A DNA stretch of 64,000 bases from Escherichia phage Eryne. Below are positions 33,033 to 36,000 of the stretch, in pieces. Location: the sequence record PQ529420, one strand, 5' to 3'. Position 1 is the first letter of the stretch; every line of letters begins with the position of its first letter. The position numbers and the translations under genes are program-made. The notes beneath the pieces were generated by a model. The model did not search any database. It saw nothing but the letters and a program-made list of their open reading frames with translations, and had not been told where the DNA came from.

Positions 33033-33299
33033 TTACTCCGCAATCTGAGCCATGAATTCACGTAGTTCAGAAAAACCTCCTACGTGGGTTAGCTGTTCAC
33101 CATCTTCCACAAAAATCTGAGGAAATGTGCGTGGTAGAACACCTGTTTTCTCTAAAACCAGATTCTGAATCTGATCTAAAGAATAGTCTTCATCTAAGGT
33201 AAGGTATTTAAAATCCTGTTCACGCTGTTCTAGTAGAATCTTAGCGTTAGTGCAGAAAGGACAATTTGGTTTACCGTAGATAATAAAATTCATTTTCAC
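33033..33299 (-). CDS. nrdC: glutaredoxin (NrdC-like)
   Basis: CPFC active-site motif at N-terminus, C-terminal GGFSELREF like T4 NrdC. Confidence 0.8.
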   Translation of the reverse strand: MKMNFIIYGKPNCPFCTNAKILLEQREQDFKYLTLDEDYSLDQIQNLVLEKTGVLPRTFPQIFVEDGEQLTHVGGFSELREFMAQIAE

Positions 33300-34126
33300 T
33301 CCTTGTTTAAAAGTATAGTTAAAGTTCTTACAATACCGCTATCAACACTTCGCGGATTTAAAGTAGGATCTGTTTTTAAATAAGATGTTGCTGGTCTGAC
33401 TGCTTTGGAATTATAGGTTGAAGCAGATACAGGATTAACTGTAACAGACAAATCTATAACAAGAAATATCTTTCGTGCAAAATCATACCAAGAAATATAA
33501 TCTGCACCTGCATAGTGTACAATTTTACTATTTACACCATCTTTTACAAGTTTAAAAATTGTTTCTGCAAGATCAGGTGCATAAGTAGGACATGATAAAT
33601 GATCACATACTACATTAAATTCTTTTTGACCACCGTTGTAGCGTTCCAACATAGTTTTCAAAAAGTTATGTCCAAATTCACTATAAACAGAAGCTGTTCT
33701 GATAATAAGTGCTGTAGGACAAACTGCTTGTACTAAAGTTTCACCTAATTGTTTACTGTAACCGTAGGTGTTCAAGGGGTTTGTTTTACTCTCTTCTGTG
33801 CCAGCAACATGTCCATCAAAAACATAGTCTGTTGAAATATGTACAAACTGTATCAGTAAATCATTACATGCTTTGGCAATGTTTGTTGCACCGTATGCAT
33901 TAACATTTATACAGGTGTTAACATCTTCTTCAGCTTTATCTACTGCCGTGTAAGCCGCACAATTCACAACAACATCAGGCACGTGCTGTACAAGACTATT
34001 CATAACATCTTTAAAGTTGGTAATGTCTATATCACTTGCTTCAATCAAAACAACATCTTCTGGTGCAACCTTTGCCAAAGATTGTCCTAATTGACCTTTT
34101 GAACCAAAGACTAAAAATTTTGTCAA
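33296..34126 (-). CDS. rmlD: dTDP-4-dehydrorhamnose reductase
   Basis: GxxGQLG N-terminus, NCAAYTAVD, STDYVF and YGxSK motifs typical of RmlD. Confidence 0.8.
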   Translation of the reverse strand: MTKFLVFGSKGQLGQSLAKVAPEDVVLIEASDIDITNFKDVMNSLVQHVPDVVVNCAAYTAVDKAEEDVNTCINVNAYGATNIAKACNDLLIQFVHISTDYVFDGHVAGTEESKTNPLNTYGYSKQLGETLVQAVCPTALIIRTASVYSEFGHNFLKTMLERYNGGQKEFNVVCDHLSCPTYAPDLAETIFKLVKDGVNSKIVHYAGADYISWYDFARKIFLVIDLSVTVNPVSASTYNSKAVRPATSYLKTDPTLNPRSVDSGIVRTLTILLNKE

Positions 34127-34677
34127 AATATGATCTCCTTTAGTGTTTTGGCTTCCTGATCTTTTTGTGACAAGATAGGTTTAAAATTAATATCATTAAA
34201 GATTAAATCAAAACCCCAATCTATATTGATATCTGGATCATTCCACGCAAGACTACACTCTGAAGTCGGATCGTAATATTCTGTACATTTATATTCAAAA
34301 TCAGCAATGTCGCTAATCACAACAAAGCCATGAGCGAAACCAGGAGGAATCCAAAATTGTGTTTTATTCTTTTCAGATAAAAGAACACCTACCCATTCTC
34401 CAAATGTTGGACTACCAACCCTAATATCTACAGCAACATCATAAACTTCACCACGAACACAACGTACTAACTTCCCTTGTGGGTTTTTCTTTTGAAAATG
34501 AAGCCCACGTAGAACTCCTCGAATAGAACGTGAATGGTTATCTTGGACAAAGTTTTGTTTACCTATGTATTGATCATATAAAGCCTGATTAAAACTTTCT
34601 AAGAAAAAACCACGTTCATCTCCGTAAACGTCAGGTTGAATGATCAACAAATCTTCGATTTTTGTTGCTTGAATCAT
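34123..34677 (-). CDS. rmlC: dTDP-4-dehydrorhamnose 3,5-epimerase
   Basis: ERGFFxE, GVLRGLHFQ, DVAVDIRxGSPTFGxW and WIPxGFAHGF motifs. Confidence 0.85.
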   Translation of the reverse strand: MIQATKIEDLLIIQPDVYGDERGFFLESFNQALYDQYIGKQNFVQDNHSRSIRGVLRGLHFQKKNPQGKLVRCVRGEVYDVAVDIRVGSPTFGEWVGVLLSEKNKTQFWIPPGFAHGFVVISDIADFEYKCTEYYDPTSECSLAWNDPDINIDWGFDLIFNDINFKPILSQKDQEAKTLKEIIF

Positions 34678-34689
34678 TTAATTCCCCCT

Positions 34690-36000
34690 TTATTTTAATT
34701 TAAGTAAATACTTACCGTAGTCTGTTTTACTTAAAACCTCTCCAGAACTTTTTACAGAGTCTAAAGTAATCCATTCATTTTTAAAAGCAATCTCTTCCAG
34801 GCATGCAACCTTCATACCTTGTTGCTTTTCTATTGCATGAACAAATTGAGATGCTTCCATAAGACTTTCATGTGTTCCTGTATCCAGCCAAGTGAAACCT
34901 CTTCCTAGTTTACAGACACGTAAAGCCTTTTCTTTCCAGTACATCTCATTTATATCTGTAATCTCTAACTCCCCTCTAGCAGAAGGTTTAACGCTTTTAG
35001 CTTTCTGTATAACAGAATTATCGTAAAAGTACAAGCCTGTGATTGCATAATTGCTTTTTGGTGCTTTTGGTTTTTCTTCAAATGTGCCTTTAGCTTTCCA
35101 CCCTAATTCCTTTTCAATCTTATAAGGATTCACTTCATATCTTAAATCATGCCCAGGTCTATCTGTAACCATTTCAATGAGGCTACAAGCATCTGTTTCA
35201 GATGGATACACCGCATCCATATAATCACAAATCATATAGATTACATCAATATTAGTTCTAGGGTTTCTGCTCCCAATATTATATGTTTCTCCAGATTTGC
35301 CTTTAGTTACTACTAGGTGTAATGCTTCTGCGTGATCGTCAACGTATAACCAGTCTCTTACTTGAAGACCATTGCCATAAACAGGAATTGGTTTATGCAT
35401 CAAGATATTTGTTATCGTTTTAGGTATTAGTTTTTCTGGATGATGATACGCTCCAAAATTATTTGAACAATTTGTTATAACTGTCGGAATACCATAAGTA
35501 CGATGCCACGCTCTTACCAAATGATCGCTTGCTGCCTTAGATGCAGCATATGGACTACTTGGCTTATAAGGATTCTGTTCTGTAAACGGATAATCCCCTT
35601 CTTCCATATCACCATATACTTCATCTGTTGAAATATGATGGAACATTTTAAGATTTGATTTATCTCCCATTAAACGAACAGCTTCTAGGAGATTAAATGT
35701 CCCAACAATATTTGAATTTATAAAAACACTCGGTGATGCTATTGAATTATCTACGTGACTTTCTGCTGCAAGATGCATTATATAATCTGGATTAACATCT
35801 GCCACAATCTTAGCAGTTAACTGCGCATTTGTCAAGTCAACACGACAAAACTTTACATTGGGTGTTTCTGATAAATTTCTAGGGTCTGAAGCGTAACCCC
35901 ATTTATCTATAACGTAAATATCATTTTTAGTATTTTTAGCCAGGAAACGAACTACCGCACTTCCAATAAAGCCTAAACCACCTGTTACTAAGTATTTCAT
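34690..36000 (-). CDS. dTDP-glucose 4,6-dehydratase (RmlB, lacking about 30 C-terminal residues) fused in frame to the C-terminal domain of glucose-1-phosphate thymidylyltransferase (RmlA)
   Basis: N-terminal 300 aa MKYLVTGGLGFIGS...STDEVYGD...YxxSKxxxD...DRPGHDLRY are RmlB; C-terminal 130 aa KSNYAITGLYFYDNSV...KPSARGELEITDIN...GRGFTWLDTGTHESL...KNDYGKYLL closely match the RmlA C-terminus; RmlA catalytic N-terminus absent. Confidence 0.75.
   Translation of the reverse strand: MKYLVTGGLGFIGSAVVRFLAKNTKNDIYVIDKWGYASDPRNLSETPNVKFCRVDLTNAQLTAKIVADVNPDYIMHLAAESHVDNSIASPSVFINSNIVGTFNLLEAVRLMGDKSNLKMFHHISTDEVYGDMEEGDYPFTEQNPYKPSSPYAASKAASDHLVRAWHRTYGIPTVITNCSNNFGAYHHPEKLIPKTITNILMHKPIPVYGNGLQVRDWLYVDDHAEALHLVVTKGKSGETYNIGSRNPRTNIDVIYMICDYMDAVYPSETDACSLIEMVTDRPGHDLRYEVNPYKIEKELGWKAKGTFEEKPKAPKSNYAITGLYFYDNSVIQKAKSVKPSARGELEITDINEMYWKEKALRVCKLGRGFTWLDTGTHESLMEASQFVHAIEKQQGMKVACLEEIAFKNEWITLDSVKSSGEVLSKTDYGKYLLKLK

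Follow-up and report, generated by a model that had tools for sequence, protein, structure and literature searches.

The genes considered here belong to a pathway already known from phages. A complete route to deoxythymidine diphosphate (dTDP)-L-rhamnose has been described in the phi92-like phages and in their sister genus Phapecoctavirus, with DNA glycosylation put forward as a guess at its purpose; in the literature on rml gene function in these phages we found no experimental work, only that speculation (PMC7552041). In phi92 (gp067, gp066, gp065 and gp064) and other members of Justusliebigvirus, the operon runs in the order rmlB, rmlA, rmlC, rmlD, with nrdAB upstream and the genes for glutaredoxin, lysozyme and phoH downstream. 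We examined this locus in a stretch of 64,000 nucleotides (nt) from Escherichia phage Eryne (PQ529420); this whole stretch is called the window below. Sequence comparison identifies the phage as a phi92-like virulent E. coli myovirus of the genus Justusliebigvirus (Stephanstirmvirinae). Its rml region shares locus, gene order and neighbors with that of phi92 and over 50 further members of the genus, at 98–99% nucleotide identity. Unlike the phi92 operon, it lacks 557 nt (19 rmlB codons, an 8-nt spacer and the first 163 rmlA codons), and what is left of rmlB and rmlA forms one reading frame. Very probably, this is an ordinary, strain-specific allele of a known phage operon that arose by repeat-mediated deletion and yields a tolerated loss-of-function chimera.

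Gene layout and domain identity

Three adjoining open reading frames (ORFs) of 276, 184 and 436 amino acids (aa) occupy positions 33296–36000 of the window on the minus strand. A first-pass annotation had read the longest of them as RmlB running directly into the C-terminal part of RmlA, with the N-terminus of RmlA missing and the junction at a short E-E/K-P stretch shared by both parents; it had taken rmlC and rmlD to be intact. The features are placed as follows.

34690..36000, minus strand: chimeric ORF RmlB(1-310)::RmlA(164-289), 436 aa (ORF list, NCBIfam, Pfam, alignment, PDB sequence matches)
35082..36000, minus strand: part derived from rmlB only, coding nt 1–919, with the motifs GLGFIG, STDEVYG and YAASK inside it (alignment and motif search)
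35070..35081, minus strand: deletion junction, where the 12-nt direct repeat survives as one copy, TTGAAGAAAAAC on the coding strand (alignment, repeat search)
34690..35069, minus strand: part derived from rmlA only, RmlA residues 164–289 and the stop codon (NCBIfam, alignment, AlphaFold)
34123..34677, minus strand: rmlC, dTDP-4-dehydrorhamnose 3,5-epimerase, 184 aa, intact (ORF list, Pfam, NCBIfam, relatives)
33296..34126, minus strand: rmlD, dTDP-4-dehydrorhamnose reductase, 276 aa, intact (ORF list, Pfam, NCBIfam, relatives)

The chimeric ORF has kept the start codon and ribosome-binding site of rmlB, and its stop codon is that of the native rmlA. Its stop codon is separated from rmlC by 12 nt; rmlC and rmlD overlap by 4 nt.

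Two NCBIfam profiles divide the 436-aa product between them. TIGR01181 (RmlB, dTDP-glucose 4,6-dehydratase, an extended short-chain dehydrogenase/reductase) matches aa 2–310 over profile positions 1–303 of 321, with a score (412.5 bits) above its cut-off of 365.1. TIGR01207 (RmlA) matches aa 307–435 over positions 156–284 of 286 and, at 188.1 bits, falls below its cut-off of 360.65. The Pfam domain picture of the three ORFs agrees with that from NCBIfam, and the PDB sequence matches of the chimera are to residues 1–326 of the RmlB 1g1a and residues 152–288 of the RmlA 1iim. The composition proposed in the first-pass annotation is thereby borne out: the C-terminal part of the ORF is RmlA-derived, the absent N-terminus corresponds to the deleted RmlA residues 1–163, and the shared stretch at the junction, fixed at FEEK/PKAPK, is the 12-nt repeat common to both parents.

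The chimera keeps the RmlB motifs: GLGFIG (aa 8–13) for NAD binding (GxxGxxG), STDEVYG (aa 124–130) as the catalytic T-D-E segment and YAASK (aa 151–155) as the YxxxK motif. A complete C-terminal substrate-binding domain of RmlB, with its terminal helix, is not present, the profile match ending at 303 of 321 positions. Likewise, the product has no G-G-x-G-T-R-L nucleotide-binding core of RmlA: in the intact phage RmlA, GGSGTRL (aa 8–14), SKQL and LGDN all lie within the deleted residues 1–163. What persists of rmlA at 34690..35069 codes for the end of the catalytic/sugar-binding domain and for the C-terminal helical part.

The other two genes presented no such defects. RmlC scored 259.8 bits against TIGR01221 (cut-off 155.75; profile positions 3–175 of 176), and RmlD scored 254.2 bits against TIGR01214 (cut-off 224.05; positions 1–261 of 285). 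At 831 nt, rmlD has the length that it has in every relative. Because both products score above their cut-offs, the RmlC profile is fully covered and the length of rmlD is that of the relatives, we take both genes to be intact, as had been supposed. Compared with nine relatives, neither gene differs in length or carries a private non-synonymous change.

The deletion, its endpoints and its distribution

The missing sequence was delimited against the intact genomes AV123 and phi92, in which an rmlB of 990 nt (329 aa) is followed by the 8-nt spacer GGAGGAGT and an rmlA of 870 nt (289 aa). The left 931 nt of the chimeric gene align with rmlB and the last 392 nt with rmlA, with an overlap of 12 nt; therefore, the window is short by exactly 557 nt. 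In the intact operon, TTGAAGAAAAAC occurs at coding positions 919 and 1476, and the window retains one copy. The two copies lie 557 nt apart in identical codon phase: one, near the 3' end of rmlB, falls within ACA TTT GAA GAA AAA CTT (T-F-E-E-K-L), and the other, in mid-rmlA, within AGT ATT GAA GAA AAA CCA (S-I-E-E-K-P). The RmlB residues that were lost are its last 19, LYSTIDWYVDNKEWWENKV, and the lost spacer holds the rmlA ribosome-binding site. The deletion and its endpoints are fixed to the base, and they present what is expected of repeat-mediated deletion, namely a direct repeat at both ancestral ends and exactly one copy in the derived sequence. The origin suggested in the first-pass annotation, loss of sequence between rmlB and the adjacent rmlA, is confirmed by these data: relatives keep the parent arrangement, and the ends are the copies of the repeat. 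Except for this indel, some 25 kb around the operon are collinear with relatives at 98.6–99.1% identity.

We surveyed the intact AV123 operon (3262 nt) for other sequences of this kind. The longest exact direct repeats are of 14 nt (rmlB/rmlD), 13 nt (within rmlB) and 12 nt (rmlB/rmlA), and every other one has at most 10 nt. All three of these pairs are in matching codon phase. Deletions between their copies are therefore in frame, and the open frame of the chimera is uninformative on selection for its product.

Indeed, the 14-nt pair has been the site of an independent event. In Escherichia phage cardinal (PQ567651.1, locus 2501–3409), 2353 nt are missing between the copies of CATATTTCAACAGA, which codes for an H-I-S-T-D motif common to the two short-chain dehydrogenase/reductase (SDR) paralogues. 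The product, labeled “putative dTDP-dehydrorhamnose reductase” in GenBank, is an in-frame chimera of 302 aa in which RmlB(1-126) is continued by the C-terminal part of RmlD. The cardinal deletion resembles that in the window in genus, operon, exact position between short in-phase direct repeats and in-frame outcome. It differs in extent: rmlA and rmlC were wholly removed, and with them the whole pathway was lost, as opposed to only its first steps. Observed deletions can thus be traced to two different pairs among the longest three, a pattern that we regard as the signature of repeat-mediated deletion. Studies of T4 rII and of T7 reportedly found that the sequence between two short direct repeats was lost exactly, that one copy stayed behind and that longer repeats were favored. 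In contrast to those deletions, the present ones come from natural isolates, and the event is deduced by comparison with relatives rather than being experimentally selected or measured.

The deletion is rare. Of the 55 GenBank records of Justusliebigvirus that match, 53 have the intact operon as a single collinear piece; one of the remaining two (Paula) is merely interrupted by its record ends. Separate rmlB and rmlA genes, which the first-pass annotation proposed to look for in related phages, are thus the rule. In each of the 53 records with full coverage, a 221-nt probe spanning the junction matches as two pieces that are 557 nt apart, and the junction of the window was found in none of the 55. 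At 18 further metagenome or genome places with the same RmlC or RmlD, a 329- or 330-aa RmlB and a 289-aa RmlA are always separate. An exact 35-mer of the junction had no match in IMG/VR, in the JGI metagenomes or in GTDB (one genome per species).

Besides the window, the junction was seen only in Logan assemblies, as two near-identical variants. The exact 436-aa protein is encoded on one contig, from run SRR31253914. Its 90% cluster holds a second 436-aa protein, P0131, which has the same junction, differs by S236P and A359T, and is encoded on four contigs, the longest of 71,115 nt. Both differences are polymorphisms of intact relatives: P236 occurs in P0133, and T is found at the corresponding RmlA site in phi92. 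When the chimeric gene was compared with the nine relatives, the RmlA remnant had no private substitution, and the RmlB part had a single, synonymous one. Because the remnant has no private amino-acid change, the deletion looks recent, although the power of this comparison is low.

Some further records and features came to light in these searches. GenBank MG065639, MG065645, MG065656 and MG065689, entered as “Campylobacter phage” with C. jejuni as the host, are ~99% identical to E. coli Justusliebigvirus in this region, and the host label is probably wrong. On the metagenomic Justusliebigvirus contig ERZ27259853 k141_101500 (ENA; locus 3552–4381), rmlD is split into ORFs of 72 and 159 aa; relatives have 1 nt more in this region, which represents either a further lesion of the operon or an assembly error. 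In the phapecoctavirus Escherichia phage AV125 (OR352955.1), the RmlA match spans residues 1–260 of 289, and this may be another truncated rmlA. Within the window, the sign of the GC skew switches at ~21000 and ~56000; these points bound a block of ~35 kb on the minus strand that has genes of nucleotide metabolism and replication and includes the rml operon. A cluster of 15 tRNA genes lies at 59495–62200 on the plus strand (Met, Leu and Ser, two each; Lys, Tyr, Asn, Thr, Gly, Gln, Pro, Phe and Ile). A 217-aa protein at 30400–31053 (minus strand) has only a faint match to the Pfam family Proteasome (PF00227); its position, between phoH and upstream hypothetical genes, is kept in relatives. Finally, a 220-aa ORF at ~28264–28926 (minus strand; L003 9950–10612) carries a Resolvase domain (PF00239), in a phage that is regarded as strictly virulent.

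The chimeric product

What can such a protein be expected to do? To judge from its sequence, the glucose-1-phosphate thymidylyltransferase activity of the phage is destroyed, because the whole nucleotide-binding half of RmlA is missing. The truncated RmlB, lacking its last 19 residues, may or may not still work.

We examined the product further with an AlphaFold model, which was based on an alignment of 72 sequences and had a mean predicted local distance difference test (pLDDT) score of 80.9. The RmlB part was modeled with confidence. Residues 313–325 and 363–377 had pLDDT values below 50, and no strands were predicted in the stretch 311–376. In crystal structures of intact RmlA, the equivalent stretch contains beta-strands. 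Only the terminal helices (residues 377–434, the last ~60 residues), which were modeled with moderate to high confidence, have the appearance of native RmlA. The retained piece of RmlA begins in the middle of the catalytic domain, away from any domain boundary. The most plausible reading of the RmlA remnant is that of a passenger tail, which would have no function of its own.

The host presumably can make good the damage. E. coli possesses two enzymes with glucose-1-phosphate thymidylyltransferase activity, RmlA/RfbA and RffH; on the route to enterobacterial common antigen, its RffG carries out the reaction of RmlB (PMC12773781). A search of 5426 complete E. coli genomes detected homologues of the rfbA/rfbB type in 5214. 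We infer that RfbA/RffH and RfbB/RffG stand in for the phage enzymes that were lost or damaged; because rmlC and rmlD are intact, host intermediates might still be turned into dTDP-rhamnose. Another possibility is that the phage does not need the operon in culture: the whole pathway is gone from cardinal, and ESCO37, a phapecoctavirus, is naturally without rmlA and rmlB (PMC10269720).

Origin of the allele and standing of the operon

Before the readings of the allele are weighed, the operon itself must be considered. All four rml ORFs are intact in each of the nine relatives that we used to gauge selection. The ratios of non-synonymous to synonymous polymorphism (pN/pS) among them were 0.027 for rmlB, 0.085 for rmlA, 0.048 for rmlC and 0.226 for rmlD, values that indicate purifying selection on the operon. 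The phage RmlA and RmlB are 70–80% identical to proteins of Citrobacter phage Tr1 and of phapecoctaviruses, which are sister phages, and identity between RmlB and its enterobacterial counterpart is ~57%. For the fused gene, the best nucleotide match in E. coli is rfbA/rfbB at ~67% identity, and the GC content of the rml region (0.35) is that of the rest of the window. This comparison of identity and GC content with the host, also proposed in the first-pass annotation, rules out recent capture from the host: identity to rfbA/rfbB is low, composition is phage-like and the most similar proteins belong to other phages. The suggestion of a decaying captured operon thus holds only in part. This allele is damaged; the operon as such, intact in nearly all matching records, under selection and old in phages, is not decaying. 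By its sequence record, it is an old, selected, phage-resident module of which only the allele in the window is damaged.

Candidate users of its product can be named. In a close relative, phage alia (NC_052655.1), four adjacent genes annotated in RefSeq as glycosyltransferases (gp044–047; 43544–46720) stand beside a primase/helicase gene, and they are plausible users of phage-made dTDP-rhamnose. No match to the window was obtained from alia 1–50000, which includes this cluster at 43.5–46.7 kb.

The history of the allele would be as follows. The starting point was the four-gene dTDP-L-rhamnose operon normal for Justusliebigvirus. Replication slippage or microhomology-mediated recombination between the copies of TTGAAGAAAAAC would have removed the 557 nt, and their matching codon phase yields RmlB(1-310)::RmlA(164-289) in frame automatically, no selection being needed. 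RmlA was destroyed and RmlB shortened by 19 residues, with rmlC and rmlD left untouched. The allele would be tolerated either through supply of the affected steps by host RfbA/RffH and RfbB/RffG or through dispensability of the operon under the growth conditions used. We infer that the deletion is neutral.

Several observations weigh against this account. The intact genes are under purifying selection, so their loss is probably not neutral in nature. Because P0131 has the same junction, the fusion allele is not confined to one assembly; from the sequences, the allele appears either to have persisted and recombined into a second background or to have arisen repeatedly. A product that is tolerated, or even useful, would likewise be compatible with its persistence. 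In addition, the AlphaFold model reports on native-like parts only and is no measure of stability or activity.

Could the chimera be a working new enzyme? The first-pass annotation raised the idea that RmlB had gained the regulatory/oligomerization domain of RmlA. In this scheme, an active RmlB would carry the C-terminal oligomerization/allosteric part of RmlA and would respond to dTDP-rhamnose, or would dock with host RfbA/RffH tetramers and channel or hijack dTDP-glucose. The preserved frame, the retention of all cofactor and catalytic motifs of RmlB, the confidence of the modeled helices 377–434 and the recurrence of the junction in a second variant on four other contigs all speak for it; moreover, with rmlC and rmlD intact, a host-fed pathway could still run. 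However, the in-frame join is predicted by the phase of the repeats, and the cardinal deletion is in frame, too. The RmlA piece starts inside the catalytic domain with a stretch that is modeled as disordered, strandless and of low confidence, and RmlB has lost the C-terminal 19 residues of its own. Nor is there a sign of a protein family: the junction is absent from the 55 GenBank relatives and from IMG/VR, the JGI metagenomes and GTDB, and no conserved RmlB-RmlA fusion family of this architecture was found in these collections or among 5.8 billion proteins. Bacterial fusions with RmlB at the N-terminus and RmlA-derived sequence next do exist. Unlike the chimera, P0023 (646 aa) and P0025 (663 aa) contain both enzymes at full length; the other truncated RmlB-RmlA chimeras among the 5.8 billion proteins, P0020 (534 aa) and P0021 (504 aa), are singletons joined elsewhere, with RmlA starting at profile position 68 or 114. 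We thus judge a new enzyme to be very improbable, and the gain of a domain proposed at first finds no support.

It is also very unlikely that the deletion itself was selected, with the chimera being irrelevant. Loss of the phage RmlA would have to be advantageous, for instance by sparing deoxythymidine triphosphate (dTTP) for DNA replication on laboratory hosts. RmlA uses dTTP, and an unregulated glucose-1-phosphate thymidylyltransferase depletes the thymidine nucleotide pools of E. coli (PMC12773781). The independent hit to the operon in cardinal, the lack of rmlA and rmlB in ESCO37 and the presence of one junction in two sequence backgrounds are in keeping with such an advantage. Against it, the 53 relatives with an intact operon include many that were isolated and propagated on K-12, and all four genes are under purifying selection.

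Highly unlikely, in our estimate, is an allele that is tolerated, recurs or spreads and that encodes an active RmlB, its RmlA helical segment attaching to host RfbA/RffH or sensing dTDP-rhamnose. Because two sequence backgrounds share one junction, the allele may have persisted. Were this so, the phage would draw host dTDP-glucose straight into its own RmlC and RmlD steps.

An assembly or sequencing artefact that concealed two separate genes is extremely improbable: the junction does sit in a short repeat, and no matching GenBank relative has the deletion, but the 12-nt repeat is shorter than the k-mers of standard assemblers, a separate Logan assembly of SRR31253914 matches window positions 24690–38875 without a mismatch over 14,186 nt, junction included, the second variant has the same junction on four other contigs, and the independently sequenced GenBank genome PQ567651 has a comparable repeat-bounded deletion. 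A frameshift or sequencing error, the latter being one circumstance that the first-pass annotation had named as fatal to a chimera, is ruled out by that assembly and by the nature of the change, a clean deletion of 557 nt rather than of a single base.

Returning to the repeat-mediated deletion, we conclude that the chimera represents neither a new enzyme architecture nor evidence for decay of the whole operon. Taken alone, the finding has little import: one strain has lost a function by deletion, and the operon concerned had been annotated before, in over 50 genomes of related phages. It does offer a clean case, from nature, of a virulent phage losing sequence between short repeats, and it illustrates that an in-frame chimera can arise without selection. 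Together, the phage of the window, with rmlA lost and rmlB truncated, and cardinal, with the pathway lost, constitute natural mutants with which the roles of the operon and of the alia glycosyltransferases could be probed.

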